Source: Alphaproteobacteria bacterium (GTDB taxonomy: Bacteria; Pseudomonadota; Alphaproteobacteria; Bin95). From it: a DNA stretch of 64,000 nt. The stretch covers positions 3,584,001 to 3,648,000 of the forward strand of contig CBDBGH010000003.1 in NCBI GenBank assembly GCA_965205265.1, written 5' to 3'. Numbering within the stretch: position 1 is the first letter of the stretch; every line of letters starts with the position of its first letter. Made by a program: the position numbers and the translations under genes. Of this stretch, positions 24,879 through 43,245 are shown piece by piece. The notes under the pieces are model-generated. The model had not been told where the DNA came from. It searched no databases and saw only the letters and a program-made list of their open reading frames with translations.

Positions 24879-25664
24879 ATGACCCAATCGCCCGTTCTGG
24901 AACGCCGCGAAGGCGCGGTCGCCGTGGTGACCCTGAACCGCCCGGAGGCGCTGAACGCGCTCAACATCGAAATGCGGGACCTGCTGCCGCGCGTGCTGAA
25001 CGGCCTGAACGGCGACGAGGCGGCGCGCGCGGTCGTGCTGACCGGGGCGGGCGAGCGCGCCTTCTCCGCCGGGCAGGACCTGAACGACTCGGCGGGCTTC
25101 GACGAAAAGACCGTGCAGGAGCATTTCCTGCATCTGGGCGCGCTCTACCAGTCCGTGCGCGCGCTGGAGAAGCCCGTCGTCGTGGCGCTGAACGGGCTCG
25201 CTGCCGGCTTCGGCCTGCAGACCGCGCTGCATGCCGATATCCGCATCGCGCATGCAGGCGTGCGCATGGGCCAGCCGGAGGTGCGCGCCGGCATTCCGAG
25301 CACGGTCGGCCCCTTCATCATCGAGCGCGCGGTCGGCCATGCCCGCGCGGTGGAGCTTTCGCTCACCGGCAGGCTGCTGGATGCCGAAACCTGCCTCGCC
25401 TGGGGCATGGTCAACGAGATCGTGCCGCGCGAGCGCGTGATGGAGCGGGCGATGGAGCTTGCCGGGGAACTGGCCGCCCTGCCGCCGCTTGCCGTTCGCC
25501 TCACCAAGCGCCGCCTGCTGGAGCGCACCCAGGCGGAATACGATGAGACCGTCCAGGCCGCGATGCGCTACCAGCAGGCCGCCTATCTGGACGGCGAACC
25601 GCAGCGCGTCGCCGCCGCCTTCTTCGCAGAGCGGGCGGCGCGGCGCAGCAGGGAGACGGCGTGA
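24879..25664 (+). CDS. Enoyl-CoA hydratase/isomerase family protein
   Basis: LNRPEALNAL, FSAGQDL, KPVVVALNG, PEVRAG. Confidence 0.88.
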   Translation: MTQSPVLERREGAVAVVTLNRPEALNALNIEMRDLLPRVLNGLNGDEAARAVVLTGAGERAFSAGQDLNDSAGFDEKTVQEHFLHLGALYQSVRALEKPVVVALNGLAAGFGLQTALHADIRIAHAGVRMGQPEVRAGIPSTVGPFIIERAVGHARAVELSLTGRLLDAETCLAWGMVNEIVPRERVMERAMELAGELAALPPLAVRLTKRRLLERTQAEYDETVQAAMRYQQAAYLDGEPQRVAAAFFAERAARRSRETA

Positions 25665-26479
25665 TGGGAACGGGACGGGTCGGGACGGTCGAGCGGGACG
25701 GGGCGCGGACCGTCTATGAGGTCCACGGCGGTGCGGGAGCACCGGCGCTCCTCTTCGGCCATGCCCAGATCCTCTCCCGCGCCCAGTATGCGCCGCAGGT
25801 CGAGGCATTCGCCGACCGCTACCGCGTGATCGCGCTGGATTTCCGGGGCCACGGCGAGAGCCCCGTCAGCCCCGCGCCCTACCGCATGGAGGACCTGGCG
25901 CAGGATGCGGTTGCGGTTCTGGACGCGGAGGGCGTCGAGCACGCGCACTATCTCGGCTCCTCGCTCGGCGGCATGGTCGGCTTCGCGCTCGCGCTGGAGC
26001 ACGCCCCCCGCCTTGCCAGCGTGACATTCCTTGCCACCCAGGGCGTGCTGCCAGCGGCCAATGGCGAGCGGATTCGCCGGACGGCCGCCCGCCTCGCGGC
26101 CCTCGGCGACAGCATGGCGCCGGCGGCGCAAGAGATCATGGCGCGCTATACGACCGAAGCCTGGCGCGCGGAAAACCCGGAGAGCCACGCCCGCCTGATC
26201 GGGATCGCGTCCGCCAACCCTCTGGCGGGCTACGAGCATTCCGGCGGCGCCATCACGGCCATGGACTATGACGGCCGGCTCGGCGGGATCGACACGCCCG
26301 CCCTGGTCGTCGCCGGCGAACATGACATGCCGACCCCGCCGGAGCGGATGGCGCTCTACCGCGACAAGATCCGGGGCGCGGAAATGGCGGTGATCGAGGG
26401 TGCCGCCCATTTCCCCAACTGGGACCGGGCCGAGGCGTTCAACCGCGTCTATGGAGACTTCCTCGCCCGCTTGGCCTGA
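25661..26479 (+). CDS. Alpha/beta hydrolase (PcaD-like)
   Basis: DFRGHGES, GSSLGG, GEHD, AAHFPN. Confidence 0.85.
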   Translation: MMGTGRVGTVERDGARTVYEVHGGAGAPALLFGHAQILSRAQYAPQVEAFADRYRVIALDFRGHGESPVSPAPYRMEDLAQDAVAVLDAEGVEHAHYLGSSLGGMVGFALALEHAPRLASVTFLATQGVLPAANGERIRRTAARLAALGDSMAPAAQEIMARYTTEAWRAENPESHARLIGIASANPLAGYEHSGGAITAMDYDGRLGGIDTPALVVAGEHDMPTPPERMALYRDKIRGAEMAVIEGAAHFPNWDRAEAFNRVYGDFLARLA

Positions 26480-26590
26480 CGGCCTCCCCTCCCTGAGGGC
26501 TACCGGATTCGCACATCTCCGGCGACCTCGAATCGCATGGCCCCCTGGTCCCCCCGCCATCTTTTATGAGCCGCAGCCCGGCACCGCTGG

Positions 26591-26681
26591 CCCCGGCGTC
26601 CAGCAAGGCTTCCGCCAATTCCGCATGGCCCTTGCGCGCCGCGCCGTGCAGCGGGGTCCGGCCGTGCTTGTTCCGGGCATC
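26591..26681 (-). pseudogene. Single ankyrin-repeat fragment truncated at a REP
   Basis: DARNKHGRTPLHGAARKGHAELAEALLDAGA matches the ankyrin consensus G-TPLH-AA--G-----LL--GA; no intact gene around it. Confidence 0.7.
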
Positions 26682-26854
26682 TCCCACCGAGCGGCCGGAT
26701 GGATACCCGGACTTGTTCCATTGCTGTCCGGTTCAGCCATTGGGTGAGGCTGAACGGGAGTCCGCCGGGGGTTTCGGGGGCGCGCGGCGTCTGCGATCCG
26801 CCCCTTGCCCGTGAGGCTCGAACGCCCCCTTCGACAGGCTCAGGGCAGGCTCTT

Positions 26855-26943
26855 CCGTCATGCCCGGACTTGTTCCGGGTATCCATACGGCCGCCCGGCG
26901 GAGCCGCTTGAGAGAGATACCCGGAACAAGTCCGGGTATGACG
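26855..26943. repeat. REP doublet (REPIN-like), CGTCAT family
   Basis: CCGTCATGCCCGGACTTGTTCCGGGTATC followed by an inverted copy GATACCCGGAACAAGTCCGGGTATGACG. Confidence 0.85.
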
Positions 26944-27182
26944 ATATGGGGGTCGGGCATGACGACTTGGGGGCCGGGCCGCCGGGCGTCGATCCGGGTC
27001 CCGATCCCGCCGAACCCCTCGAAACCCGGTTGAATCCAGGCCATGCGCCCTGCCCGCAAATCCTGAACCGGACAGCCATCGGGGGGAGCCGAACGGGGTG
27101 TCGGGAGCGCACCGCGTCTGCGATCCGCCCCTTGCCCGTGAGGCTCGAACGCCCTCCTTCGACAAGCTCAGGACAGGCTTCT

Positions 27183-27271
27183 CCGTCATACCCGGACTTG
27201 TTCCGGGTATCCACACGGCCGCCCGGCTGAGCCGCTTGAGAGAGATACCCGGAACAAGTCCGGGTATGACG
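27183..27271. repeat. REP doublet
   Basis: Same inverted pair as 26855-26943. Confidence 0.85.
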
Positions 27272-27597
27272 ATATGGGGCGGGTATGACGATGTGAGGGT
27301 CGGGACGCCGGGCGTCGATCCGGGTCCCGATCCCGCCGAACCCCTCGAAACCCGATTGAATCCAAGCCATGCGCCCTGCCCGCAAATCCTGAACCGGACA
27401 GCAATGGAACAAGTCCGGGTATGACGAAAGAGCTTGCCCTGAGCCTGCCGAAGGGGGGCGTTCGGACATGACGGGGGTGTTCATGCATGACAAATCCGAA
27501 AGCGATTGCCCTGCCGCAAAAGCCTCGGCCAACACGCTTTCCGATCCTGCAAATATGAAATATTCCCGATAATTTCGATTTCGTTCTTTTTCATGAC

Positions 27598-27624
27598 TTG
27601 ACATCTGGCGAATTGTGGTATGAT
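27598..27624 (+). promoter_or_regulatory. Sigma70-like promoter with extended -10
   Basis: TTGACA-15 bp-TATGAT with TGn before the -10 and an AT-rich upstream tract; conserved in copy 2. The spacer is shorter than the canonical 17 bp. Confidence 0.55.
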
Positions 27625-27630
27625 GGTCCC

Positions 27631-27830
27631 CAGGGAAGCGGACTCCGGAGCCGCTTCCCCGGTGCTGCGCGGCCGAGCGGCGCCACTTTCTGAAAACCCG
27701 TGAGAAGCCGACGGGAGACGTGCGTCCTCTGCCTCGCGCGCGCAATCAGGCGCGCGAACCGCGCCGCCGCGAAACGCGCGCCGGCGCGCGCAGGGGCACC
27801 CGCGCAGGATACGCGCGAAACAGGGACCCG
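27631..27830 (+). ncRNA. Putative structured non-coding RNA, unknown family, copy 1
   Basis: Consecutive hairpins directly after the promoter; differences from copy 2 in hairpin 2 keep pairing through G-U wobbles. Confidence 0.45.
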
Positions 27831-28012
27831 CTCCCCGTCGGGAAAGGAGAGACGATGACCGCAACCGACCCCCGACCCGAACTGGCGGCAATGCTGGCCG
27901 AAAGGCCGGCGCCGGCAGATGGCAGAGCACGCTCCGTCCGGGTTGAAACGGCAGGTCGGGAGCCTGCTCCCTCCCGCTGGGCGGGAGAGAAGGTCGAAGG
28001 GTGGACGGCTTC

Positions 28013-28060
28013 ATGCCCGAACCGGCTACAGCATATGAACCCCGCGCATGCAAAACATGA
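28013..28060 (+). CDS. Putative 15-aa micropeptide MPEPATAYEPRACKT
   Basis: Homologous frame in two more copies (35854-35901, 35647-35694) with synonymous Pro codon changes; weak RBS. Confidence 0.3.
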   Translation: MPEPATAYEPRACKT

Positions 28061-28173
28061 CATCTCAGGACATTTCGGAAGGAGGACTGCCCGCCGGCAA
28101 GGGCCGCGGTCGTTGACAGGGGCGCGGCGGGCTGCCATCGAGCGGGGGCAATAAGGGGCGGAGGAACGAACCC

Positions 28174-28974
28174 ATGCAGGACGGCGATCTCTACGAGATT
28201 TACGCAGTCAAATACGGCGAGGTGGCCGACCGCGCGATGAGCGAGAACATGATCGGCGGCGACCCGCACGACATGTCGGGCCAGCTCGACTTCTATGTCT
28301 GGGCCGTTGTCGGGCGCTCCCGGACCTTCATCGTCGATACCGGCTTCAACCACGAGACGGCGGCGCTCCGGAACCGGAAGCTGCAGCGCCTGCCGAAGGA
28401 GGGCCTCGCCCTTGTCGGCGTCGATGCGGGCGCGGTGCGCGACGTGATCGTGACCCATATGCATTACGACCATGCCGGCACGCTCTCGGACTTCCCCAAT
28501 GCCCGCTTCCACCTCCAGGAGCAGGAGATGGAATACGCCACCGGGCGCTGCATGTGCCATGAGGTGATAAAGGCGCCCTACTATGTCGAGGACGTCTGCA
28601 CCATGGTGCGCAAGGTCTATGCGGGCGAGGTAACCTTCCATGACGGCGACGCCCAACTCGCGCCCGGCGTGTCGGTGCATCATATCGGCGGCCACGCCAA
28701 GGGCCTGATGAGCGTGCGTGTCGAGACCCGGCGCGGGCCGGTGGTGCTGGCCTCGGACTCCGCGCATTTCTACGCCAATCTGGAGCAGCGCCGGCCGTTC
28801 CCGATCGTCTATAACGTCGCCGACCTGCTGGCCGGCTTCGACCGGCTGGAGGCGCTGGCGGGCGCGCCGGACCGGGTGGTGCCGGGCCATGACCCGCGCG
28901 TGCTCCACCGCTACCCGGCCGCCTCCGAGGAGCTCCGGGGCATCGCGGCGCGCCTCGACGCGGACCCCGCCTGA
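28174..28974 (+). CDS. Metallo-beta-lactamase fold protein, N-acyl homoserine lactonase family
   Basis: VDTG, THMHYDHAG (HxHxDH), GGHAKG, LASD, PGHD; GAGG RBS. Confidence 0.85.
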   Translation: MQDGDLYEIYAVKYGEVADRAMSENMIGGDPHDMSGQLDFYVWAVVGRSRTFIVDTGFNHETAALRNRKLQRLPKEGLALVGVDAGAVRDVIVTHMHYDHAGTLSDFPNARFHLQEQEMEYATGRCMCHEVIKAPYYVEDVCTMVRKVYAGEVTFHDGDAQLAPGVSVHHIGGHAKGLMSVRVETRRGPVVLASDSAHFYANLEQRRPFPIVYNVADLLAGFDRLEALAGAPDRVVPGHDPRVLHRYPAASEELRGIAARLDADPA

Positions 28975-28977
28975 GCC

Positions 28978-29988
28978 TTGCGCCTCGGTATTCTGGACCA
29001 GTCGATTGCGGCGGAAGGCCGGCCGCAGGGCGAGGCGATCCGCAACACGGTCGCGCTCGCCGAGCTTTGCGAGCGGCTCGGCTATGACCGCTTCTGGGTC
29101 TCGGAGCACCACAACCACCCGACCATCGTCGGGACGGCGCCGGAAATCCTGGTCGCCGGCATGGCGGCCCGGACCTCGCGCATCCGCATCGGCAGCGCCG
29201 GCGTCATGCTGCCGCATTACGCGCCTTTCAAGGTCGCGGAGCAGTTCCGGGTGCTGGATGCGCTGGCGCCGGGGCGCATCGATCTCGGGCTCGGCCGCGC
29301 GCCGGGATCGGACGGGCTGACGGCCTTCGCCCTCAATCCGCGCGCCAATGAGCGCCCGGCGGAATTTCCCGCCGATATCCGCGACCTGCAGGCCTGGCTC
29401 AAGGCCGAGCCGCTGCCGGAGGGCCACCCGTTCGCCCGGCTCGGCGCCTTTCCGCAGGGCGATACCGTGCCGCAGATCTGGATGCTGGGTTCGTCCAATT
29501 ACGGCGCGCAGGTGGCGGCATGGTTCGGCCTGCCCTACGCCTTCGCCTGGTTCTTCACCGACGGGCGCGGGGCAAGGGAAGCGCTCGGCCTCTACCGCGA
29601 GCACTACCGCCCGAGCGCGGACTGGCCGGAGCCGCATTCGGCCATCTGCGTCTGGGCGCTGGCGGCCGACAGCGAGGAGGAAGCCGGGTTCCACTTCGGC
29701 CCGCGCCTGCGCTGGCGGCTCGGGCGCGACCGGGGCATGTTCCTGCCGCTGGAGTCTGCCGAGAAGGCGGCTGCCTACGAATACAGCGACGGCGAATCGG
29801 CCCGGCTCGCCCGTTTCCGCGAGCAGGCCATCGTCGGCCGGGCGGAGCATGTAGTCGAGCGCATCAGGGCGATCGGCGAGGAACTCGGCGTGGACGAGAT
29901 CGCCATCGTCACCTGGACGCATGACGAAACCGTCCGTCGGCGGAGCTACGAACTCATCGCCCGCGCCTGGGGCCTCGCTCCCGGCTAA
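28978..29988 (+). CDS. LLM-class flavin-dependent oxidoreductase
   Basis: RFWVSEHH, RIGSAGVMLPHY, PGRIDLGLGRAPG. Confidence 0.92.
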   Translation: MRLGILDQSIAAEGRPQGEAIRNTVALAELCERLGYDRFWVSEHHNHPTIVGTAPEILVAGMAARTSRIRIGSAGVMLPHYAPFKVAEQFRVLDALAPGRIDLGLGRAPGSDGLTAFALNPRANERPAEFPADIRDLQAWLKAEPLPEGHPFARLGAFPQGDTVPQIWMLGSSNYGAQVAAWFGLPYAFAWFFTDGRGAREALGLYREHYRPSADWPEPHSAICVWALAADSEEEAGFHFGPRLRWRLGRDRGMFLPLESAEKAAAYEYSDGESARLARFREQAIVGRAEHVVERIRAIGEELGVDEIAIVTWTHDETVRRRSYELIARAWGLAPG

Positions 29989-30956
29989 CCCGCCGCGCGC
30001 CGGGCGAGGTTCAGCAGGTCCGCGAGGTCGAGAATGCGCGCAACCCAGGGCTCGCGCGGGTTGAAGCCGGGGCCGGCCTCGCCGAGCAGGCGGGCTTCGA
30101 GCGCGTCCAGCAGCCGGGAGAGCCGGCGGTCATGCAGGCCGAGATGCGCCTGGACCGGGTCGGCCGCCACGCCGGCGAAGGCGGTCAGCATGGCCGGCAG
30201 GAGGACCAGCGCGCCGGTGAGGCCGGCGATGGCGGCGGTCGAGGCCTTGGCGGGGAAGAGGCCGTACCAGAGGCCGCCGGCGGTCGCGCCGAGCGGGAAG
30301 CCCGCAATCGCGGCCTGCTGCGCCAGCGCCTGCGCGGCGACGGGGCCGAGCGAGAGCGCGCCCGGCGTCCATTGCCGGAAGGCGGCGGCGCCGATGCCGG
30401 CGGCGGCGAGCGAGGCGGCCAGTTCGGCGACCGCCACGCGCGCCTCGCCGTAACTCGCCGCCGCCCGCTCCGCCCAGGCCCGGAAGCCCGGCTCGGCGGC
30501 GGCGGCGGAAAGCCGGTCCAGAAGGGCGCCCACTGCCGGGTCGCGCGCAAGCTCTTCCGCAAGCGCATCGCGCTCCGAGCGGCGTCCGGGCTGCGCATAG
30601 GGCAATTCCAGCAGTTCGGTGAACAGCCGCCATTCGATTTCGCGCGCGACATCGGTGACGAAGACCTTCCGTCCCCGGCGCAGCCCGGTGGCGGCGCCCT
30701 CGTAGCCGCCGCGCTCGGCCAGCCGGGCGGCGCCCTCCAGGGCCAGATTGGGGCCGGCCAGCGCCAGATTGGCGGGCGCGCGCAGCAGGTCCCGCCCGAC
30801 CGCCCGGCGGTGGAGTTCGAGCGTCCCCTTCAGGCGGAAGTTACGCCGCACGAAATCCGGCGCCATCTCCCGGCGGCGCCGGATATAGCGCAGGACCGCC
30901 CGGCGCACCGCCGCATCGGCCTCCTCCGGCCCGAGATGTGGCGCGACATCGCCCAT
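29985..30956 (-). CDS. Conserved hypothetical membrane protein (DUF6635-like)
   Basis: Good codon usage; G.DLLRAPANL and DPVQAHLGLH.RRL motifs. Confidence 0.65.
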   Translation of the reverse strand: MGDVAPHLGPEEADAAVRRAVLRYIRRRREMAPDFVRRNFRLKGTLELHRRAVGRDLLRAPANLALAGPNLALEGAARLAERGGYEGAATGLRRGRKVFVTDVAREIEWRLFTELLELPYAQPGRRSERDALAEELARDPAVGALLDRLSAAAAEPGFRAWAERAAASYGEARVAVAELAASLAAAGIGAAAFRQWTPGALSLGPVAAQALAQQAAIAGFPLGATAGGLWYGLFPAKASTAAIAGLTGALVLLPAMLTAFAGVAADPVQAHLGLHDRRLSRLLDALEARLLGEAGPGFNPREPWVARILDLADLLNLARRAAG

Positions 30957-31010
30957 CCGGGGAATATGGGGTGCGGCCGCGGCCGGCGCGAGGGGCCGGC
31001 CCGCCGCCGC

Positions 31011-31505
31011 TCAGAGCGAGCGGATATAGTAGATCAGGTCGAGTTCCGGCGGTGCGAGCCCGGCCTGGCTCAGCATGTCGTGGACCTGGCCGCGGTGATG
31101 GGTTTCGTGGTTGAACAGGTGCGTGAACACCAGCCGCAGCGGCGTGCGGAACGGCGTTCCGGCGAGGTTGCTGTAGGCGAGGTCGCCCGCCAGCCGTTCC
31201 TCCGTGATCGCCGCGAGCACGCGGCCGATGCGGTCGTCCTCGGCATCCCTCGCGCGGCGCAGTTCGTCGAAATCGTCGAACAGCACGGTGTCGAGCGGGG
31301 TTCCGTCGTCGACCAGCCCCTCGATGCGCCCGAGCCAGATGCGGTCGCCGACCAGGATATGGTTGAGCGTGTTGTGGATCGAGCCGAAGAACGCGGCGCG
31401 GTCCCGTTTGCGCTCCGCGTCGCCGAGGCCCGCGCAGGCATCGTAGAGCCGGCCATTGGCCCAGCGGTTATAGGCGGCCATGGTCTTGAAGTGGTCGAGG
31501 AACAT
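31011..31505 (-). CDS. DinB family protein
   Basis: YNRWAN, FFGSIHNTLNHILVGDRIW, HLFNHETHHRGQ. Confidence 0.92.
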   Translation of the reverse strand: MFLDHFKTMAAYNRWANGRLYDACAGLGDAERKRDRAAFFGSIHNTLNHILVGDRIWLGRIEGLVDDGTPLDTVLFDDFDELRRARDAEDDRIGRVLAAITEERLAGDLAYSNLAGTPFRTPLRLVFTHLFNHETHHRGQVHDMLSQAGLAPPELDLIYYIRSL

Positions 31506-31533
31506 GGGGTTTCTCCGGTGTTCTCGGCAGGCG

Positions 31534-32484
31534 TCATGCTGCCAGCGCCAGATATTCGGTATTGCGCCGGTCGAACAGGAGGCGGACGGCTTCGCCGGCG
31601 CGGGCGAGCGGGACGCGGCGCACCGGGCCGGGCCTGAGCCTGCCGGCGCCGACCAGCTCGAACAGCTCCTCCGAGGCCGCCAGCAGCTCGCCCTCATCGG
31701 CGATCCAGGCCGCAAGCGTCGGCCGGGCGAGGATGAGCGAGCGCGCCTCCAGCCGTTCGGGCGGCAGCGGCCGCGGCGGCCCGGCGACATTGCCGTAGCC
31801 GACAGCCATGCCCATGGGCGCCAGGCAGTCGAGGCAGCGGGCGAAGGCCTCGCCGCCCAGCGAATCGTAGGCGACATCCACGCCCCGGCCCCCGGCGATC
31901 CCGCAGACCTCTGCGGCAAGGTCGCCCGGTCCGGCGACAACCGCATGGGCGCAGCCGTTAGCCCTTGCAATCCCGGCCTTCTCCCCGCTGCCGACCGCGC
32001 CGGCGACCTCCGCGCCGACGGCCGCCGCCCACTGGCAGAGCAGCCGCCCGACGCCGCCGGCCGCGCCCGTCGCCAGCACGGTCTCGCCCGGCTGCACGCG
32101 GCGCAGCCGGCGCAGCAGGTAGTGGACGGCGAGGCCCCGGCGGATGACGGCTGCGGCGGTCGCGTCGTCGATGTCGTCCGGAACCGGGACCAGCCGGCCC
32201 GCCGGGACATTGCGCAGCACGCGCCAGGCGCCCGGCAGATCGGCATAAGCCAGCCGGTCGCCCGGCCGGATGCCCTCGACGCCCGCGCCCACGGCCTCGG
32301 CCTCCCCCGCCGCCGCGACGCCGGGGACGAAGGCCGCGCTGCCCTCCGGCGGCTCGAGGCCGCAGCGGTCGAGGCCCATGGCGGTCTGCCGCAGCCGCAC
32401 CTCGCCGGGGCCGGGCGGCCCGACCGCTTCCTCCCCGACGACCGGTCCTGCGCAGCCGGGCCGGACGCGGACGACCGCCGTCAC
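31534..32484 (-). CDS. NADPH:quinone oxidoreductase-like protein (MDR family), divergent N-terminus
   Basis: GAAGGVG, GVDVAYDSLG, GYGNVAG; GTG start overlaps the upstream TGA. Confidence 0.75.
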   Translation of the reverse strand: MTAVVRVRPGCAGPVVGEEAVGPPGPGEVRLRQTAMGLDRCGLEPPEGSAAFVPGVAAAGEAEAVGAGVEGIRPGDRLAYADLPGAWRVLRNVPAGRLVPVPDDIDDATAAAVIRRGLAVHYLLRRLRRVQPGETVLATGAAGGVGRLLCQWAAAVGAEVAGAVGSGEKAGIARANGCAHAVVAGPGDLAAEVCGIAGGRGVDVAYDSLGGEAFARCLDCLAPMGMAVGYGNVAGPPRPLPPERLEARSLILARPTLAAWIADEGELLAASEELFELVGAGRLRPGPVRRVPLARAGEAVRLLFDRRNTEYLALAA

Positions 32485-33689
32485 GCGCTCTCGGGCCGCA
32501 TATGCTCCGGCACGGTCAGCCCGAACAGCCTGGCCGCGTTCAGGCCGAGGATCTTCGCCCGGTCGGCCTCGTCGAGCCCGCCCATGGTGCGCTCGATGGC
32601 TTCGCCCGAATGCGGCCATGTGCCTTCGTGGTGGGGATAGTCGTTCGCCCACATGAAATTGCCGGCAAGGCCCCAGTCCTTCGCAAGCGCCAGGCCCGCC
32701 GGGTCTTCCTGGAAGGTGGCGTAGCCATGCGCGCGGTAATAGTCCGACGGCAGCCCCTGGAGCTTCGGGCGCACCCACATATGGTGCTTGCGGTAGGCCT
32801 CGTCCATCGCGTCGAGCAGCCAGGGCACCCAGCCGATACCGGCCTCGATGGTGGCGAAGCGGATCTTCGGGAAGCGCTCCAGCACGCCCGAGGCGCAGAG
32901 GTTCGCCACCGGCTCGATGGTCGGCGAGAGCGAATGGGTCACATAGTTGATGACCGCCCCGCCATTGCCCCGCGAGGCGCGCGGGTCGCGCCCGGTGCTG
33001 ACATGGAAGGTGACCGGCATGCCGACCTCCTCGACCAGCGCCCAGAGCGGGTCGAAATGCGGCAGGTTGTAGTTGACGTGATCGACATCGTGCCCGCCCC
33101 AGATGGGCTTGCAGGGCAGGGTGAGCGCCTTGTAGCCGAGCGCCGCGCAGCGCTCGATTTCGGCGAGCGTGCCGTCGAGATCGCCGGTCGCGACCGCGGC
33201 CACGGGCACCATCTTCTCCGGCCAGGCGCCGAACTGCTCCCAGGCCCAGTCGTTCCACACCCGGCACTGGGCGTTGGCGAACACCGGGTCCGGCGTCGCC
33301 CACATGGCGAGGCCCTTGTTCGGGAAGATGATTTCGGCGTCGATCCCGTCCTGCTCATTGTCGCGGATGCGCCCCTCGGGGTCGGCGCCCGCCTGCGAGC
33401 GCACCCAGTCCTCGCCCTCGAAGCTCATGATCCGGATGCGGTCCGGCCGGTAGCCCTCGCAATAGCGCCACTGCACGCCGTTCTCGTCCGTGACGACGCG
33501 GGGCGCGCGTTCGCGGTATTTCTGCGGCAGGCGCGTGGCCCAGAGGTCCGGCGGCTCGTTGGCATGGCTGTCGGTCGAGACCATGTAGTATTTCTTCGGG
33601 TCGCCGGCGCGCGCGGTGCGCGTCCAGCCTTCGTGTCCCGGCGTTTCCAGCCGCCAGAGGTTCTCGGCATTGATGGCGATATCGTTCAT
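32481..33689 (-). CDS. Amidohydrolase_2 family protein
   Basis: STDSHANEP, FHV, IEAGIGW, WANDYPHHEGTW. Confidence 0.9.
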   Translation of the reverse strand: MNDIAINAENLWRLETPGHEGWTRTARAGDPKKYYMVSTDSHANEPPDLWATRLPQKYRERAPRVVTDENGVQWRYCEGYRPDRIRIMSFEGEDWVRSQAGADPEGRIRDNEQDGIDAEIIFPNKGLAMWATPDPVFANAQCRVWNDWAWEQFGAWPEKMVPVAAVATGDLDGTLAEIERCAALGYKALTLPCKPIWGGHDVDHVNYNLPHFDPLWALVEEVGMPVTFHVSTGRDPRASRGNGGAVINYVTHSLSPTIEPVANLCASGVLERFPKIRFATIEAGIGWVPWLLDAMDEAYRKHHMWVRPKLQGLPSDYYRAHGYATFQEDPAGLALAKDWGLAGNFMWANDYPHHEGTWPHSGEAIERTMGGLDEADRAKILGLNAARLFGLTVPEHMRPESA

Positions 33690-33788
33690 GGGGTCCCGGA
33701 TACTCCCTCGGATGGTCGTTCGCACCGGACGCTACCCGCTCGGCCGGGCGCCGTCCATACCGGCCCCGCCCCGGCAAGGAGCAAGCCG

Positions 33789-34823
33789 TTGACCGGGCGG
33801 GAAAAACCCTGGTGGCGGCCGGAGGCCTACGCCGCCCGCCGCCCGGCCCTGCTCCAGCGCGCGGCGCTGCTCAGGCGCATGCGGGACTGGTTTGACGGGC
33901 AGGGCTTCGTCGAGGTCGAGACCCCGGCGCTCCAGGTCGCGGCCGGCATGGAGGTGCATGTCGCGCCCTTCGAGACGGCGTTGCACGAGCCGGACGGGCG
34001 GTCCCGCGCGCTCCGCCTGCACTCTTCGCCCGAATTCGCGATGAAGAAGCTGCTGGCGGCCGGCGAGCCGCGCCTCTTCCAGTTCGCGCGCGTCTTCCGC
34101 AATGGCGAGCGCTCGGCGACGCACCATCCCGAATTCACCCTGTTGGAATGGTATCGCGCGGGCGCCGGCTGGCGTGACCTCATCCCCGACTGCGAGGCGC
34201 TGCTGGCGCTGGCGGGGCCGGAGCTCCGGTGGAACGGCCGGCGCGTGCCGACCTCTCCGCCCTTCGAGCGCCTGTCCGTGGCGGCGGCCTTCCAGCAGCG
34301 CCTCGGCCTCGACATGCTGGCGGCGGACACCGCGAGGCTCGCCGCCGCCTGCCGGGCGGAGGGGCTGGAGCCGGGCGGAGCGGACAGCTGGGAAGACCTG
34401 TTCTTCCGCCTGTTCCTCAACCGCATAGAGCCGCATCTGGGCTTCGCGCGTCCGACCGTGCTGCACGGATGGCCGGCGCGCATGGCCGCACTCGCCCGCC
34501 TCGACCCGGACGACCCGCGCGTGGCGGAGCGCTTCGAGATCTATGTCGGCGGGCTGGAGCTCGCCAACGCCTTCGGGGAGCTGACCGACGCCGCCGAGCA
34601 GCGCCGGCGCTTCGAGGCCGCGGCAAGGCAGCGCCGGGCGCTCCATGGCGACGACCTGCCCCTCGACGAGGACTTCCTTTCCGCGCTCGAACACGGCATG
34701 CCCTCCTCGGCCGGGATCGCGCTCGGCTTCGACCGGCTGGCGATGCTGGCAACGGGCGCGGATAATATCGAGGACGTGCTCTGGGCGCCCGTGGCGGGCG
34801 CGGCGCACGACGAGGAAGGATAA
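33789..34823 (+). CDS. epmA: EF-P lysine aminoacylase EpmA (GenX/PoxA)
   Basis: FVEVETP, LHSSPEFAMKKLLAAG, FRNGE..HHPEFT.LEWY, ELANAF.EL, GIALGFDRL; TTG start after AAGGAG. Confidence 0.93.
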   Translation: MTGREKPWWRPEAYAARRPALLQRAALLRRMRDWFDGQGFVEVETPALQVAAGMEVHVAPFETALHEPDGRSRALRLHSSPEFAMKKLLAAGEPRLFQFARVFRNGERSATHHPEFTLLEWYRAGAGWRDLIPDCEALLALAGPELRWNGRRVPTSPPFERLSVAAAFQQRLGLDMLAADTARLAAACRAEGLEPGGADSWEDLFFRLFLNRIEPHLGFARPTVLHGWPARMAALARLDPDDPRVAERFEIYVGGLELANAFGELTDAAEQRRRFEAAARQRRALHGDDLPLDEDFLSALEHGMPSSAGIALGFDRLAMLATGADNIEDVLWAPVAGAAHDEEG

Positions 34824-34835
34824 GGAGAGGGACGG

Positions 34836-35228
34836 ATGAGCGAAGCGGGCCGGTTTTTCTGGAACGAGCTGATGACGCCGGACATTGAGGGAGCCAAGGC
34901 GTTCTATGGCAGGCTTTTCGGCTGGGAGGGTCAGACCGCGCCGATGCCGGGGCCGGACGGCGCGGACTATACCGGCTTCATGCTGGGCGGCACGCCCGCC
35001 GGCGGCGCGCTCGCGCCCCCGGAGCCCGGCATTCCGCCGCACTGGATGCCCTATGTCCGGGTGGAGGATGCCGATGCGGCCGAGGCGGCGGCGGTCGAGG
35101 CCGGCGGCCAGGTGTGCCGGTCGGCCTTCGACGTGCCGCAGGTCGGGCGGATCGCCGTGCTGCAGGACCCGGCGGGCGCCGTCTTCGCCGTCATCGCGCC
35201 AGCGCCGGAGCTTCTCGCCGGCGGGTAG
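34836..35228 (+). CDS. VOC/glyoxalase family protein
   Basis: WNELMT, FYGRLFGW, W.PYVRV.D.D, DPAGAVF. Confidence 0.9.
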   Translation: MSEAGRFFWNELMTPDIEGAKAFYGRLFGWEGQTAPMPGPDGADYTGFMLGGTPAGGALAPPEPGIPPHWMPYVRVEDADAAEAAAVEAGGQVCRSAFDVPQVGRIAVLQDPAGAVFAVIAPAPELLAGG

Positions 35229-35402
35229 GGCGAGTCCCTCCGGACCGGCCGCGCCGGTCTCCACGCCTCCAATTCGTCTTGCCGGACGGCGAGCCGGGGC
35301 GGCGAATGAGGACGGGCAGGCCCGGGCCGCCGGAAATGCGCGGACCCGGCAGCCCTGCCGGCCCGGACCGCGGGAAGCCCCCTCCCAGGATATGTCATGG
35401 GA

Positions 35403-35636
35403 GGAGATTACAAAGATAGGTTGACGGGGGAGACCGACGACATTTCTTCCGTTATACCTCAACGCTCCCTCCGTCATACCCGGACTTGTTCCGGGTATCT
35501 CTCTCCACCGCTGCCGCCGGACGGCCGCATGGATACCCGGAACAAGTCCGGGTATGACGACATGGGGGCGGGTTGGACGTCGGAGAGAAGGTGCGAAGCC
35601 TCCCAAACCTGTTGTCAACCTATCCATATAAGCCCC
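35403..35636. mobile_element. 234-bp MITE, probably IS1595/IS1016-derived, carrying a REP doublet
   Basis: TIRs GGAGATTACAAAGATAGGTTGAC / GGGGCTTATATGGATAGGTTGAC (18/23); perfect 8-bp TSD TCATGGGA at 35395-35402 and 35637-35644. Confidence 0.8.
35471..35559. repeat. REP doublet
   Basis: CCGTCATACCCGGACTTGTTCCGGGTATC plus inverted copy. Confidence 0.85.
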
Positions 35637-35646
35637 TCATGGGATG

Positions 35647-35694
35647 TCATGATCCGCATGCGGGCGGCGCATATCCCATGGTCGCTTCCGGCAT
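35647..35694 (-). CDS. Putative micropeptide MPEATMGYAPPACGS
   Basis: Paralog of 28013-28060. Confidence 0.3.
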   Translation of the reverse strand: MPEATMGYAPPACGS

Positions 35695-35853
35695 GAAGCC
35701 GCCGGCTTCGCCCCGACGCTCCGGACATGCCGTCCGGTTTCCCGCCCTCCTGTTTTCGGCACGAGGCTTTCCTCCCGTTCCGTCCTGGTTCCGTGCTTTC
35801 CGCCCCCGGTGGGCCCGGCCAGCAGGGAGTCCCCCAGGACATGTCATGGGATG

Positions 35854-35901
35854 TCATGATCGGCATGTGGGTGGCGCATACCCTGTGGCTGTTTCAGGCA
35901 T
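35854..35901 (-). CDS. Putative micropeptide MPETATGYAPPTCRS (may start at upstream ATG 35970 with GAGGAG RBS, 38 aa)
   Basis: Paralog of 28013-28060. Confidence 0.3.
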   Translation of the reverse strand: MPETATGYAPPTCRS

Positions 35902-36073
35902 GCAGCCGCCGGTTTTGCGCCGATGCTCCCGGTATTCCATCCGGTTTTTCCACCTTCCTGTTTTCGGCATGAAACGCTCCTCTCGATTCGCCTTCGCTCC
36001 GTTCTCCCCGCCGCGCCGAACGCGGCGAACGTTACGAATGGCGGCGTTGGCGCCGCCGCCGCGCCGAACGCGG

Positions 36074-36275
36074 CGGGACCCTGATTCGCGCGTATCCTGC
36101 GCGCCCGCGCCTGCGCCCGTCCGCGCGCGTTTCGCGGCGGCGCGAATCGCGCGCCTGATTGCGCGCGCGAGACGCAGGACGCACGTCTCCCGTCGGCTTC
36201 TCACGGGTTTTCAGAAAGTGGCGCCGCCCGGTCGCGCAACGCCAAGGGAAGCGGCTCCGGATGCCTCTTCCCTCA
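36074..36275 (-). ncRNA. Putative structured non-coding RNA, copy 2
   Basis: Same hairpin series as 27631-27830. Confidence 0.45.
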
Positions 36276-36281
36276 GGGGCT

Positions 36282-36308
36282 ATTGTAGCACACTCCGCCA
36301 GATGTCAA
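36282..36308 (-). promoter_or_regulatory. Sigma70-like promoter with extended -10
   Basis: TTGACA-15 bp-TACAAT with TGn. Confidence 0.55.
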
Positions 36309-36502
36309 GCCCCGAAGGCGAACAAAACAGAAATTACCGGGAATATTTCATATCTGCGGGATCGGAAAGCGTGTTGGCCGAGGCTTTCGCGGCAGGGCAA
36401 TCGCTTTCGGATTTGTCATGCCCGAACGCCCCCTTCGACAGACTCAGGGTAGGCCCCTCCGTCATGTCCGAACGGCCCCCTCCGTCATACCCGGACTTGT
36501 TC

Positions 36503-36863
36503 CATTGCTGTCCGGTTCAGCCATTGGGTGAGGCTGAACGGGAGTCCGCGAGGGGTTTCGGGGGCGCGCGGCGTCTGCGATCCGCCCCTTGCCCGTGAGG
36601 CCCCAACGCCCTCCTTCGACAAGCTCAAGACAGGCTTCTCCGTCATACCCGGACTTGTTCCGGGTATCCACACGGCCGCCCGGCTGAGCTGCTTGAGAGA
36701 GATACCCGGAACAAGTCCGGGTATGACGATATGGGGCGGGCATGACGACTTGGGAGCCGGGCCGCCGGGCATCGATCCGGGTCCCGATCCCGCCGAACCC
36801 CTCGAAACCCGGTTGAATTCGAGCCATACGTCCTGTCCACAAAATCTAAACCGGACAGCAATG
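36503..36863. mobile_element. 361-bp MITE (CAT-ended TIRs) inside REP half-sites, containing a REP doublet (36640-36728)
   Basis: CATTGCTGTCCGGTT ... AACCGGACAGCAATG, flanked by CCGTCATACCCGGACTTGTTC / GAACAAGTCCGGGCATGACGG. Confidence 0.75.
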
Positions 36864-36941
36864 GAACAAGTCCGGGCATGACGGGAAAAGGGATGGGAAA
36901 GAGGCGGGGACACCGGGCCCCGGTCCGCCCCATGCGCCTTC

Positions 36942-37931
36942 TCAGAAGAATTGTTCCAGAACCCGGTCCGGCGGACGGTGGCCGTCCGTGAAGGCCTTGA
37001 TGTTGACGATCACCCGCTCGCCCATTTCCAGCCGGCCTTCCAGCGTGGCCGAGCCCATATGCGGCAGCAGCACCACATTGTCGAGCTCGCGCAGCCTCGG
37101 GTCGATGGCCGGCTCGCGCTCGAAGACGTCGAGCGCCGCGCCGGCGAGCCGGCCGGCGAGCAGGGCTTCCAGAAGCGCCGGCTCGTCGATCACCTCGCCG
37201 CGCGAGGTGTTGACGATATAGGCATGCGGCTTCATCAGCGCGAGGCGCCGGCGCGACAGCAGGTGGTAGGTCGCCGGGGTGTGCGGGCAGTTGATCGACA
37301 CGATGTCCATGCGCGCCAGCATCTGGTCGAGGCTCTCCCAGTAGGTCGCCTCCAGCTCGGCCTCGATGTCGGGGTCCGTGCGCCGGCGGTTGTGGTAGTG
37401 GATCGAAATGCCGAAGCCGCGCGCGCGCCGCGCCACCGCCGCCCCGATCCGGCCCATGCCGACAATGCCGAGCCGCTTGCCGTAAATCCGGTGGCCGAGC
37501 AGCGCCGTCGGCGCCCAGCCGAGCCATCCGCCGGTCCGCACCAGGCGCTCGCCCTCGATGAGCCGGCGCGAGACCGAGAGGATCAGCGCCATGGTCATGT
37601 CGGCCGTGTCGCCCGTCAGCACGCCCGGCGTGTTGGTGACCATGATGCCCCGCTCATGCGCGGCCGCGAGGTCGATATGGTCCACGCCCGCGCCGAAGCT
37701 CGCCAGCAGCTTGAGGCCGGGGCCGGCGGCCTCTAGGCACTCCGCGTCGATGCGGTCGGTCACGGTCGGCACCAGCACGTCCGCCCGGCCCATGGCCTCG
37801 AGCAGTTCGGCGCGGTCCCATTGCCGGTCGCTGTCGTTCAGCTCGGTGCGGAACAGCTCCATCATGCGCGTCTCCACCGCGTCCGGGAGCTTCCGCGTGA
37901 CGATGACGAGCGGTTTGGGCGCGGTGGGCAT
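36942..37931 (-). CDS. D-glycerate/glyoxylate reductase (2-hydroxyacid dehydrogenase)
   Basis: FGAGVDHID, GIVGMGRIG, NTSRG, LDVFE.EP, PHMGS. Confidence 0.93.
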   Translation of the reverse strand: MPTAPKPLVIVTRKLPDAVETRMMELFRTELNDSDRQWDRAELLEAMGRADVLVPTVTDRIDAECLEAAGPGLKLLASFGAGVDHIDLAAAHERGIMVTNTPGVLTGDTADMTMALILSVSRRLIEGERLVRTGGWLGWAPTALLGHRIYGKRLGIVGMGRIGAAVARRARGFGISIHYHNRRRTDPDIEAELEATYWESLDQMLARMDIVSINCPHTPATYHLLSRRRLALMKPHAYIVNTSRGEVIDEPALLEALLAGRLAGAALDVFEREPAIDPRLRELDNVVLLPHMGSATLEGRLEMGERVIVNIKAFTDGHRPPDRVLEQFF

Positions 37932-41576: not shown

Positions 41577-42884
41577 TTACCCGTGCCCGTTCGCGCAGGC
41601 GACGAGGCGCCGGTGCGCAAGCGCGTTCGCCTGTGCCCCGGCCCGGTTGCGAAGCGAGCGGTATCCGTTCGAGAGCAACGCTCCCTCGGTGAAGAGGGCG
41701 GCCGCGAACCGCAATGCGTTCGTCCGGTCGTCGATCCTCGGGCTGTGGAATCCCGACCGGGGCGTGCCCCGCACCACCGGTCCGAACCGCTCGATCCGCC
41801 CCTGCCCGTCGCGCACCGCCAGCTGGACCCTGCGCCCGTCTTCGGGGAATCCGCCGAAATGGGCCGCGACCTCAAGCCTTCGCTCCCGCGCGAAACAGGT
41901 CAGGGCGACGCCGATCCGGTCAGGCCCCCCTCCGACCCGTGCGCGCAGCAGGTAGGCGACATCGGTCCCGAACTCGCCGCTCGTGTCTTCTATGCGCCTG
42001 ACCTCCGGGGTGGGCAGAACCGTCTGTGCTGCCGTGTCTTTCGCCGGATTGAGCCGCGTACCGGCATCGGCTTGTTTCGGTCCCGCGCTCCGTCCGGGGA
42101 AGAACAGGTCATCGAGGATGGCCTCGATGTTTTTCGGTCCCGCGGTCTGTCCGGCCGGCACCGTCCATTCGAGTTGCGTGTCGAGCGTGTCGTACAGGCT
42201 CGCCCGGCGCGTCCAGCCTCCAGTCGGTCCGGGCCCAAAGCCGATGACGTCCTGGACCTCGCCCCTCAGTTCCACCAAAAGCGTGACGCCGGCGAGCTGG
42301 TTCCTGAACGAATGGATCATGGCGGCGAGGTTGTGGCCGGTGAGGCCGGTCTCCGGGCTCAGGAGCGGTGCGAGCACGCCGGGGTCGATCGGTCTTCCGG
42401 GATCGAGAAGCATTTCGCTCACCGTCTCGCAAAGGGCGGGCGAAACCGGCGGCGGCAGGCCGTCGGCGCAATTGGTGAGAATTTCCTGCCGTATGAACTT
42501 TTTGGTCTCCGCCGGCGAGCTGGTGAACCGGTAACCGGTTTCGCTCCCGGTGACGACGGTGCCCTGCTCGCGCATGAACTGCGCGAAGCGTTCCAAGGCG
42601 ACCGGAGGGCCGGTGGACCGCCACTGGTTCGCGCCGTATTTGACGATCTCCCGCTCTCCGAGTTCGGAGAACAGGGTCTCCTCGACAAACGCGCGCCGTT
42701 CCTCTTCGGGCATGCCTTCCAGGACCCCGGCGTTGACGCTGAGCGTGGACTCGACCGTCACCGTGCCGTCCGGGGAGAACGTATAGACCGCGTGCTGGTG
42801 CAGGCAGCCGGACAACGCGAGCGCGCTGGTGAGTGCGAACGGCAGCACGAGCCTCGATGTTTTCGAGGCCTTGCGGGCCGGCAT
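41577..42884 (-). CDS. Hypothetical lipoprotein
   Basis: Start MPARKASK, hydrophobic stretch, lipobox LSGC. Confidence 0.65.
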   Translation of the reverse strand: MPARKASKTSRLVLPFALTSALALSGCLHQHAVYTFSPDGTVTVESTLSVNAGVLEGMPEEERRAFVEETLFSELGEREIVKYGANQWRSTGPPVALERFAQFMREQGTVVTGSETGYRFTSSPAETKKFIRQEILTNCADGLPPPVSPALCETVSEMLLDPGRPIDPGVLAPLLSPETGLTGHNLAAMIHSFRNQLAGVTLLVELRGEVQDVIGFGPGPTGGWTRRASLYDTLDTQLEWTVPAGQTAGPKNIEAILDDLFFPGRSAGPKQADAGTRLNPAKDTAAQTVLPTPEVRRIEDTSGEFGTDVAYLLRARVGGGPDRIGVALTCFARERRLEVAAHFGGFPEDGRRVQLAVRDGQGRIERFGPVVRGTPRSGFHSPRIDDRTNALRFAAALFTEGALLSNGYRSLRNRAGAQANALAHRRLVACANGHG

Positions 42885-43245
42885 CCGGTGGTCCCGTTCT
42901 GCCCGCCGGAAGATTCTGAAGCCGAAGGCAATCGCATCGGAAAGAAGAGCCGTCGCGGCTGCTCGCAATGGCTGGAGAGGTGTCGAGGGATGTGCATGGG
43001 ACATGAAAGCCTCCTGCGGATGGGGAGGCCCGATAGATTATGCATCCCGATCGGGAACGGAACACGGAAATCGTGAAAAATGGGGAAACGCAAATTTTGT
43101 TGTTGCGCATCGTGACAGCTCTCCCCTCTCGCTCGCCGACTTGCGGATAAGCGCCCAGGCTGGCGCCTGCAGCCTACGGCCTGATCCGTCTGCCGAAGTT
43201 CTTGAAGACTGCCGCACGACCGCCGGGACCCGGCGCAGGGCCGCC

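Follow-up and report, generated by a model that had tools for sequence, protein, structure and literature searches.

Two diverged copies of one repeat lie in the 64-kb window (the whole stretch of DNA analysed, from an uncultured alphaproteobacterium), and positions 27387-27836 of the plus strand align with 36520-36073 of the minus strand at 83% identity without large gaps (query 3-445). All the promoter hexamers and hairpins that an earlier sequence-only reading had listed can be read in both copies. Copy 1, on the plus strand, opens with an AT-rich tract (TGAAATATTCCCGATAATTTCG.., 27551-27597), which is the 5' boundary at family level, similarity among the long copies beginning at query 165-169, that is, at window positions 27551-27555. 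The predicted promoter follows at 27598-27624, with TTGACA at 27598-27603, a 15-nt spacer, TG at 27616-27617 and TATGAT at 27619-27624. The putative leader, a 5' UTR of about 225 nt, would span 27631-27854, its start being placed from the position of the -10 hexamer alone. Within it are the hairpins P1 (27633-27659; GGGAAGCGG at 27633-27641 with CCGCTTCCC at 27651-27659), P2 (GGTGCTGC at 27661-27668 with GCGGCGCC at 27677-27684) and P3 (CCCGT..ACGGG, 27697-27715), then TCGCGCGC at 27734-27741 facing GCGCGCGA at 27750-27757. A candidate long-range helix joins CGTGCGTCCT (27719-27728) to AGGATACGCG (27806-27815) with one mismatch. The CG-rich core, GCAATCAGGCGCGCGAACCGCGCCGCCGCGAAACG, occupies 27742-27776 and is near-identical throughout alignments of 75 and 114 sequences.

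The leader of copy 1 ends in a Shine-Dalgarno (SD) site, GGAG at 27846-27849, with a CUCC just 5' of it that is able to pair with it. The element had been described as covered by no credible conserved ORF; this holds inside the leader, but not for the element, as an SD-preceded ORF begins at 27855 directly behind it. This remnant ORF (27855-28154, 99 codons) starts with 16 codons of a 198-aa acidic protein family (MTATDPRPELAAMLAE) and continues out of register, some 600 bp having been deleted internally. A 48-nt 3' block (ATGCC..CATGA) lies at 28013-28060, with one CATGACAT repeat at 28056-28063 and a degenerate second one, CAGGACAT, at 28066-28073; relatives retain more of these 3' repeats at this locus. 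At family level the repeat therefore runs from about 27551 to about 28073, so the end given in the sequence-only reading, 28080, already takes in the 3' block. The orthologous cassette in a sister species (G012) has an intact ORF of 209 aa (L096:645-1274), and by sequence comparison copy 1 is its internally deleted orthologue.

Copy 2, on the minus strand, has the same front end at 36282-36352: an AT-rich tract at 36352-36309, then a predicted promoter with TTGACA at 36308-36303, a 15-nt spacer and TACAAT at 36287-36282. Its leader (35971-36275) repeats the P1-P3 series of copy 1, with the core at 36162-36128, and has additional GC-rich hairpins ahead of the SD. For P2 it has GGCGTTGC, which carries both of the base-pair swaps described earlier. 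The ORF behind this leader (35854-35970) has 38 codons (MPKTGRWKNRMEYREHRRKTGGCMPETATGYAPPTCRS, MPKT class), passes through the 3' block and has its stop codon, TGA, within CATGAC; copy 2 is a short-ORF member. Its 48-nt block (35901-35854) and two CATGACAT repeats (35858-35851 and 35848-35841) complete the 3' end at 35841-35901. Further 3', at 35637-35838 on the same strand, lies a partial second unit with a purine-rich SD region, a GTG-start mini-ORF, a 3' block at 35694-35647 and CATGAC repeats, recognised from the direct repeats D10 and D11 and a 3'-block match at C3:3619701. A separate MITE (35400-35636, minus strand) has been inserted directly after the CATGA of this unit's repeat; it is no part of the cassette and marks the repeat as an insertion target.

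Upstream of each copy is a cluster of REPs, which are a separate repeat family: at 26700-27480 for copy 1 (GGAACAAGTCCGGGTATGACG hairpins, repeat families D2-D7 and I3-I8) and at 36430-36900 for copy 2. The exact REP pattern has 257 matches on contig C3, and the REPs of this genome (G000) also contain YATGAC. Proximity to REPs, claimed for both noted copies, is correct for these two, but family-wide a REP lies within 300 nt in only 13 of the 71 cassettes, as against 1.8% of random genome positions. Since cassettes and REPs are both confined to intergenic DNA, this excess is not counted as linkage, and the suggestion that the element travels with REPs does not hold in general.

An nhmmer search of the genome recovered 71 leader cores above 60 bits, a recurrence far beyond chance, which bears out the proposal of a multicopy, dispersed, promoter-carrying unit. 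All 71 copies have a TTGTTC..AATAATTC-like AT-rich tract at the equivalent place. In the general plan of a cassette the predicted sigma70-type promoter (TTGACA, a 15-nt spacer and a TG-extended -10) comes next. The leader, of about 225 nt, then runs through P1, a purine/pyrimidine-asymmetric hairpin, P2, a GC hairpin, P3, which is small and has its loop rich in purines, and the 35-nt CG-rich core. Downstream are the SD site and a single variable ORF. Its product is the acidic protein of 198 aa, a protein of 305 aa that contains a terminase-small-subunit (TerS) domain, or short peptides. A 3' block is found on the same strand within 5 kb downstream of 55 of the 71 cores; its length is exactly 48 nt in all 55, and its CATG motifs are 21, 12 and 10 nt apart, a phasing of about one helical turn. 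It is followed by two to four CATGACATNN repeats of period 10 (the phased CATGACAT repeats), which put TGA and ATG into all reading frames, so that any ORF terminates there.

By ORF class, the 71 copies comprise 14 acidic (9 intact, 5 broken), 11 TerS-like (7 intact, 4 broken), 18 MPKT-type, 6 MQDA-type and 22 others. A long ORF is thus present in 16 copies, 9 of the 25 copies of the long classes are broken, and 46 of the 71 have a short or unclassified ORF only. In nearly all copies the SD stands at the correct distance ahead of an ATG. Within the genus, 13 of the 16 other genomes have the cassette; in two sister genera, none of 20 genomes does. We consider it probable that the two stretches in the window, each a promoter and leader, stand at the head of two decayed members of a cassette family restricted to this genus, whose members are small self-contained transcription units of 0.35-1.4 kb, with 71 in the genome. 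The family appears to be previously undescribed; searches of an open-access literature collection found no account of it.

Despite great sequence differences in this region, hexamers resembling -35 and -10 elements occur in 71 of 71 copies. In a set of 75 distinct copies, the spacer of the best pair of hexamers is 15 nt in 41, 16 nt in 18 and 17 nt in 9, and TG precedes the -10 in 56. A consensus promoter scan that requires a spacer of 16-18 nt made no call on the cassette promoter, whose spacer is 15 nt. The promoter would be expected to fire near 27631 in copy 1 and near 36275 in copy 2. The 35-nt core is almost unchanged in both alignments; promoters, P1 and ORFs differ. One could suppose that all this is an unexpressed DNA mosaic of REP-like repeats, promoter and hairpins being by-products of spreading palindromes and the core and CATG arrays serving as protein-binding DNA sites only. 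The leader is indeed dominated by GC-rich palindromes, with P2 being CGCGCCGGCGCG in most copies, shuffled sequence folds almost equally well, the CATG phasing suits DNA binding, the REPs share YATGAC and the promoter spacer is atypical. Such a mosaic is nevertheless hard to reconcile with -35, -10, TG, SD and ATG holding their positions in otherwise diverged copies, with a -10 that switches between two good variants (TATGAT and TACAAT), or with a selected protein gene exactly behind the SD. Moreover, the changes that preserve G-U in the GUGCGY/ACGCGC pairing (GUGUGU variants) fit pairing of RNA, not of DNA. We regard the mosaic as highly improbable.

In the named P1-P3 helices of the leader 87.7% of cells pair, compared with 49-55% when the partner is slid. 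Two-sided changes were seen in eight pairs; shuffles give 5.9 +/- 1.3, and this count was attained in 42 of 500 of them. Covariation support is thus weak, as the sequence-only reading had cautioned from two copies. Because the hairpins vary in length, RNAalifold recovered hardly any consensus from MAFFT alignments, whether of 75 whole leaders or of 75 5' domains. Alignment-free folding of P1 yielded 11.9 bp as against 10.0 bp in shuffled sequence, a test that does not discriminate since GC-rich shuffles fold nearly as strongly. A column-pair scan of 114 leaders is likewise uninformative for the core, which is (CG)n-rich, so that any CGCG stretch can pair with any other and numerous alternative helices are equally good.

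These results bear on whether the product of the family is the transcript itself, either the leader or the leader plus 3' block (about 330-420 nt where the member is short, as copy 2 is), with the short ORFs incidental and the protein classes passengers. The 46 copies with short or unclassified ORFs only would fit this, as would the core, invariant at every position unlike coding sequence, and the 48-nt block, which has no three-base periodicity (entropy 0.70, 0.73 and 0.81). The MPKT peptides also show no clear coding signal, their dN/dS being 0.47 compared with 0.54-0.71 in other frames (6 sequences). Against a non-coding product stand the SD and ATG in nearly all copies, the weak covariation and the Rfam search, which had no match to the leader. 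No hairpin-plus-U terminator-like site was found between leader and ORF in any of the 71 copies, all of which continue into an SD and ORF, so the notion of a self-contained ncRNA gene of about 200 nt had to be abandoned. The statement that the RNA belongs to no recognised family stood: Rfam had no match in the 64-kb window, and at E up to 10 across 26500-37500 it gave nothing on the leader, only chance miRNA-type matches on REP palindromes. Logan contigs of two RNA runs (X1 and X2, on 27300-29300) cover the leader, contigs being unable to give starts, ends or strand. Relative to a DNA run (X3), depth over the leader core (1134 / 158180) is lower than over the neighbouring gene (12.3 / 287.7), with multicopy collapse confounding the comparison; the leader is thus covered no more strongly than that gene. 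For the family as a whole a non-coding product is quite unlikely; for short-ORF members such as copy 2 a mainly non-coding transcript is possible. Under the cassette reading, the leader may govern the stability or translation of its ORF, as the CUCC-GGAG pairing in copy 1 would suggest.

For the 198-aa class, dN/dS is 0.27 in the reading frame and 2.2 in a shifted one, which shows purifying selection. This protein has 132 homologue clusters, nothing above cut-off in Pfam or NCBIfam, no PDB match to its model at E <= 0.001 (Foldseek) and a best ESM Atlas score of 0.85. The 305-aa protein matches PF03592 over residues 11-85, its N-terminal DNA-binding domain (50.6 bits, cut-off 26.1), and phrog_51, among the PHROG terminase-small-subunit families, at E 5.5e-14; TerS chains in the PDB were reached only at E ~0.01. 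Its homologues of similar length form 346 clusters, and in its predicted model the HTH region exceeds pLDDT 90 and the rest is helical and disordered acidic. PADLOC assigned neither cargo protein to a defence family. There was no match among 50,697 phage records or among plasmid records, and four viral contigs contained only distant N-terminal matches to the TerS-like protein (28-36% identity). In the short peptides, of 31-41 aa, K, R and E abound; these peptides are basic and hydrophilic.

Comparison with relatives reveals presence or absence at one site and decay at another. At the site of one 1350-bp TerS-like cassette in G000, three relatives (G007, G016 and G012) have 65-98 nt instead. 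The intergenic flanks of filled and empty sites in these four genomes are 86-90% identical, too diverged for placing the junctions, so that exact ends and target duplications are unreadable; the mobility reading draws on this one clean orthologous comparison. The cassette upstream of an MBL-fold gene is syntenic in at least four species and has decayed by lineage: G012 keeps it intact, G005 lacks the 5' part, G007 retains the 3' block alone, and in G000 it is internally deleted and forms copy 1. In broken TerS-like members the first ~17 codons are fused to the terminal HDK..CATGAC part, a pattern read here as that of internal-deletion derivatives, which the short members also look like. Seven TerS-like copies are nearly identical at unrelated loci, and cassettes are located at a synteny break.

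Such a pattern must be weighed against a regulon, in which the ~70 units would be ordinary paralogous host genes with a common promoter, operator and 5' UTR, leader and core acting as a cis-regulatory switch (protein-binding or riboswitch-like) on translation. Promoter features and core are conserved amid drifting surroundings, as selection on regulation predicts, and the MBL-linked cassette is old; selection on the 198-aa protein and the failure to find a transposase, terminal inverted repeat or target duplication would agree with host genes too. A regulon does not account for the near-identical copies, the site lacking a copy in three relatives, the broken long-class copies whose orthologues decay differently per lineage, dozens of copies per genome within one genus, or unrelated proteins behind identical front and back ends. 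Repeated near-identical copies, absence in relatives, decay, narrow range and unrelated cargo characterise selfish repeats rather than a regulon, and we consider this explanation unlikely.

No terminal inverted repeats were found when copy ends were compared, in agreement with the sequence-only reading; at loci L005 and L029 no end-to-end pair is common to the copies, and both ends share the palindromic CATG alone. No known transposase or recombinase was found inside or beside the cassettes, and Y1 (HUH) transposase (PF01797) had no match in G000 (98.98% complete), the control search being positive in 6 of 14 known genomes. An RNA-based mobile element, as once proposed, is not borne out, there being no linked reverse transcriptase, Y1 transposase or other enzyme; every copy also carries the promoter upstream of its start, which argues against copying via its own transcript. 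The cassettes would multiply as DNA, and the best candidate agent may be a protein that recognises the array of phased CATG motifs; the TerS-like protein could itself be that agent. A fuller version of this idea, a new type of mobile DNA, is speculative and decidedly improbable in our estimation: autonomous members without a transposase would have their TerS-like protein recognise the phased CATG/CATGACAT array, a recruited packaging or recombination machine would move the cassette or spread it horizontally, the leader core would be an RNA/DNA cofactor site, and about 45 short cassettes, including copy 2, would be non-autonomous derivatives.

Among the closest known systems are putative mobile promoters (PMC3575422). 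With these, and with Correia and other MITEs, the cassette shares dozens of intergenic copies per genome, its own promoter, long and short forms and a single lineage. Unlike Correia elements and MITEs, it has no terminal inverted repeats and carries a whole leader, SD, ORF and three-frame stop/start end, and its long forms encode a TerS-like HTH or acidic protein where the parent of a MITE bears a transposase. Correia elements, of Neisseria, are themselves promoter-bearing dispersed repeats. As with insertion sequences and their deletion derivatives, a few long copies with an intact ORF (7 TerS-like) are near-identical and are outnumbered by short ones that have the two ends in common, while in broken ones the first codons are joined to the end region; in contrast to autonomous insertion sequences, long cassettes encode no recognisable transposase or recombinase, only the PF03592 HTH or the acidic protein.

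The cargo resembles the terminase small subunit of tailed phages in its N-terminal domain, above the Pfam cut-off, and in its PHROG families. Small terminases of phage satellites redirect packaging, and pac sites have a layout of phased short repeats resembling the cassette end. Unlike phage TerS genes, however, the cassette gene is solitary and flanked by host genes, with no large terminase or phage genes beside it, occurs at least seven times per chromosome and matches no phage record. The long conserved 5' UTR, its hairpins and an invariant stretch directly 5' of the SD recall riboswitches and other structured leaders, from which the cassette differs in its want of an Rfam match, its weak covariation and the unrelated ORFs behind one leader. 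Type I toxin-antitoxin loci such as hok/sok, which encode a small hydrophobic, membrane-like toxin peptide and an overlapping antisense RNA, are also multicopy, with a long structured leader ahead of a short ORF and with long-range 5'-3' pairing proposed, but the cassette peptides are not membrane-like and no antisense promoter was seen. A stand-alone sRNA gene would share the promoter-like hexamers, but here no terminator-like site was found between leader and ORF, and an SD and ATG follow.

If the cassette reading is right, an entire genus of uncultured Alphaproteobacteria has, by the dozen in each genome, compact self-expressing units that combine promoter, invariant-core leader, one ORF and three-frame end and match no known mobility enzyme; the repertoire of mobile-element mechanisms may thereby be extended. 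For symbiont genome evolution, the cassettes stand out through their position at a synteny break and as insertion targets for another MITE. In annotation, databases label the 305-aa proteins as phage 'terminase small subunit', leaders could pass for sRNA genes and short ORFs go uncalled. Given proof of transcription, the leader would be ready to be proposed as a new family of the Rfam type.

Of the coding-like ORFs downstream of the 71 cassettes, as called by a crude GC3-based method, the nearest has the same orientation as the cassette in 27 cases and the opposite one in 40, with none in 4, so driving neighbours is not the cassette's general effect. Donation of a promoter or start codon to the next gene was likewise rejected as a general function, single loci being possible exceptions; as the repeats hold stops in all frames, open frames beginning in them are expected anyway. 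A degenerate pattern of the core found 40 loci in public MAGs, the public records with the core being MAGs, and two RNA-library runs, labelled sponge metagenome (X1) and coral metagenome (X2), contain small shares of the stretch.

Both stretches, at the front of the cassette at 27551-28073 on the plus strand (copy 1) and of its minus-strand counterpart (copy 2), most likely represent the promoter and leader that open each member of a family of selfish cassettes carried as DNA. The sequence-only reading had described two copies of a promoter followed by a hairpin series, and that description was confirmed item by item by reading the sequence and aligning both places. On the plus strand, the copy 1 promoter comprises TTGACA (27598-27603), a 15-nt spacer, TG and TATGAT (27619-27624), and is followed by helices P1 (27633-27641/27651-27659) and P2 (27661-27668/27677-27684), the hairpin CCCGT..ACGGG (27697-27715), the pairing TCGCGCGC/GCGCGCGA (27734-27741/27750-27757) and a long-range pair, CGTGCGTCCT/AGGATACGCG (27719-27728/27806-27815). 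The same series stands behind the copy 2 promoter (36308-36282, minus strand), where the two swaps claimed in P2 are present. A consensus scan called no promoter at either copy because it demands a spacing of 16-18 nt; the missing call counts as evidence against a canonical strong promoter. No Rfam family reached its gathering score in the whole window, and a search of 26500-37500 with the E limit relaxed to 10 placed no match over the leader.

A 454-nt query from copy 1 matched the genome of the window 49 times. With longer BLAST queries, many copies proved to continue beyond 27840 into an ORF; a second conserved block, equivalent to window 27973-28076, occurs in other copies 0.1-1 kb farther downstream. 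Iterated nhmmer searches recovered 71 leader cores scoring above 60 bits, every one on the contig that carries the window (C3), and 65 matches to the 3' block, which follows 55 of the 71 cores within 5 kb on the same strand, mostly at a distance of 94-400 nt. An AT-rich tract with -35/-10-like hexamers lies upstream of every core (71/71), in regions that have diverged almost past alignability. Among 75 distinct copies drawn from this genome and its relatives, the top-scoring hexamers are separated by 15 nt in 41, 16 in 18 and 17 in 9, and TG precedes the -10 in 56. Two pairs of distant cassettes on C3 share the same scores and sequences (346-628 and 4632913-4633195; 42608-43041 and 5413600-5414033), which could be segmental duplication or assembly duplication. 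The listed contamination of this genome is 7.28%.

A start codon preceded by a Shine-Dalgarno sequence was found behind the leader in nearly every one of the 71 copies. The ORFs encode an acidic protein (intact in nine copies at 195-206 aa, broken in five including copy 1), a TerS-like protein (seven intact at 303-311 aa, four broken), MPKT-type short peptides (18, copy 2 among them) and an MQDA-type (six); the other 22 are different or unclassified. The acidic protein (P0001) has no Pfam or NCBIfam family and no PADLOC match, and its 132 homologue clusters are unnamed. Its AF2 model (mean pLDDT 76.8) consists of a helical hairpin and two beta-hairpin-helix repeats, with nothing in the PDB at E <= 0.001. 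A dN/dS of 0.27 in frame versus 2.2 in a shifted frame (five sequences, 10 pairs) indicates that this reading frame evolves under purifying selection. The TerS-like protein (P0122) matches Terminase_2 (PF03592) over residues 11-85 at 50.6 bits (cut-off 26.1) as well as PHROG terminase-small-subunit families; confidence in its model is confined to the HTH region, the remainder being acidic and either helical or disordered. Its homologues of similar length form 346 clusters, and among the 120 listed one carries a source name, 'terminase small subunit'. The phage records searched held no relative, and among viral contigs four gave a distant N-terminal match. The short peptides, whose dN/dS is 0.47 in frame and 0.71 and 0.54 out of frame (six sequences), give no clear coding signal.

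The 3' block, from ATGCC to CATGA, measures exactly 48 nt in all 55 copies. It lacks three-base periodicity (column entropy 0.70, 0.73 and 0.81 by codon position), and conservation falls on CATG-type motifs at spacings of 21, 12 and 10 nt. Behind it lie two to four CATGACATNN repeats; as their period is 10, three repeats supply TGA and ATG in every frame. Whatever their class, the ORFs close with ..HD(I/K)(S/A/T) and a stop, which fits such three-frame stops. Comparison of the cassette ends revealed no terminal inverted repeat, the palindromic CATG being the sole shared element.

The structure of the leader was assessed in an alignment of 23 diverse 5' domains, with P1, P2 and P3 taken as 13, six and three pairs. 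Standard pairing holds in 87.7% of cells; sliding the 3' partner by 1-3 columns lowers this to 49-55%. Eight pairs change on both sides versus 5.9 +/- 1.3 in shuffles, 42 of 500 of which reach eight; this is not significant, in part because purines always dominate the 5' strand of P1 and pyrimidines its 3' strand, which lets shuffled partners still pair. The 35-nt core (27742-27776) yields no covariation signal since it is near-invariant and (CG)n-rich. RNAalifold found no consensus structure, and single-sequence MFE folds are not alike from copy to copy. The leader hairpins are conserved in position and pairing potential, with a defined higher-order fold a candidate only. Contigs of two RNA libraries, which give neither transcript ends nor strand, cover the leader at a strength relative to a DNA run no greater than over the neighbouring gene.

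The interpretation first offered is partly supported: what stands is a promoter-bearing unit that is present in many copies and belongs to no known family. A free ncRNA gene is not borne out, in view of the ribosome-binding site and start codon behind the leader; nor is a mobile element that is based on RNA and travels with REPs. The cassettes contain no mobility enzyme, and the genome has no Y1 transposase gene. Movement is suggested by seven almost identical TerS-like copies at unrelated loci. For one of 1350 bp (L029), the relatives G007, G016 and G012 have 65-98 nt in its place at the orthologous intergenic site, and G010 has an unrelated 1.55-kb insert (L046, G010:C2, about 311530-313083) with ORFs on the opposite strand; the site seems prone to insertions. 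Flank identity between filled and empty sites is only 86-90%, too low to place exact junctions or to read a target duplication. In the TerS-like members that are broken, the first ~17 codons are fused to the terminal HDK..CATGAC part, an arrangement typical of internal-deletion derivatives. Donation of a promoter or start codon to neighbours is not supported as the general role, as the nearest downstream coding-like ORF, by a crude caller, is co-oriented in 27 of 71 cases, opposite in 40 and absent in four.

The family is narrowly distributed. A first search found it in 14 of 16 genomes of the genus, with weak matches only elsewhere; at E <= 1e-8 the leader core occurs in 13 of 16 further genomes from the genus, and in none of 20 from two sister genera that share its family and order. 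A degenerate core pattern hit 40 loci in public species-representative genomes, 37 titled as MAG Alphaproteobacteria bacterium, two on one 'Bryobacterales' MAG contig and one from a 'bacterium' MAG. Plasmid records held no similar sequence. Correia elements, promoter-bearing MITE-like repeats, are among the nearest known kinds; unlike these, the cassettes lack inverted ends, form a whole small transcription/translation unit and carry variable cargo. The same differences separate them from another near kind, the 'putative mobile promoters' (PMC3575422). The open-access literature searched contained no description of the family.

Of the acidic protein, copy 1 retains the 16 initial codons. The loss of ~600 bp of the ORF and a mutated second CATGAC repeat then leave it out of register, for 99 codons that end at 28154. 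At the same locus G012 has a whole cassette, its 209-aa ORF (L096:645-1274) intact and the MBL-fold gene (Pfam; window 28174-28974) downstream of it, G005 the 3' part only, behind a different insertion, G007 nothing but the 3' block, and G014 a partial unit at a contig end. Judged by these differing states in four relatives, the cassette at this site is old, and its decay takes a different course in each lineage. Copy 2 is a short member whose ORF (35970-35854, minus strand) reads through the 3' block (35901-35854), and a partial second unit follows to 35637 on the same strand. Copy 2 converges with a tRNA-synthetase-like gene, whose 3' end it faces, and therefore drives no neighbouring gene.

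Several other repeats touch the cassettes. A 237-bp MITE (35636-35400, minus strand; ends GGGGCTTATATGGATAGGTTGAC .. GTCAACCTATCTTTGTAATCTCCTCC), which contains a REP hairpin, sits immediately behind CATGA of the CATGAC repeat, after the partial unit downstream of copy 2. The same MITE end lies behind CATGA in cassettes at C3:979342, 1205083, 1589470 and 4008778, and a longer, possibly IS1595-like relative that bears a zinc-ribbon transposase-like ORF occupies the equivalent place at C3:1923609; the repeat seems to be a preferred target of this MITE. Both window copies share a further upstream block of ~160 nt (27387-27550 and 36353-36520; a REP unit and CATGCATGACAAATCCGAAAGCGATTGCC..), part of which (27406-27516) recurs at about 10 further places without a cassette. 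The REP family (core GGAACAAGYCCGGGYATGAC) has 257 exact-pattern matches on C3, with window clusters at 26700-27480 and 36430-36900, yet the genome lacks a RAYT-type (Y1) transposase gene. An alpha/beta-hydrolase gene (25661-26479) and the MBL-fold gene flank the REP cluster and copy 1; they are not adjacent in G005, G007 or G012, so these repeats sit at a synteny break. Elsewhere in the window, a tandem repeat at 47753-47980 (12/18-nt units, ..GTCACCATCACC.., 11 copies in register) is probably a repetitive coding stretch.
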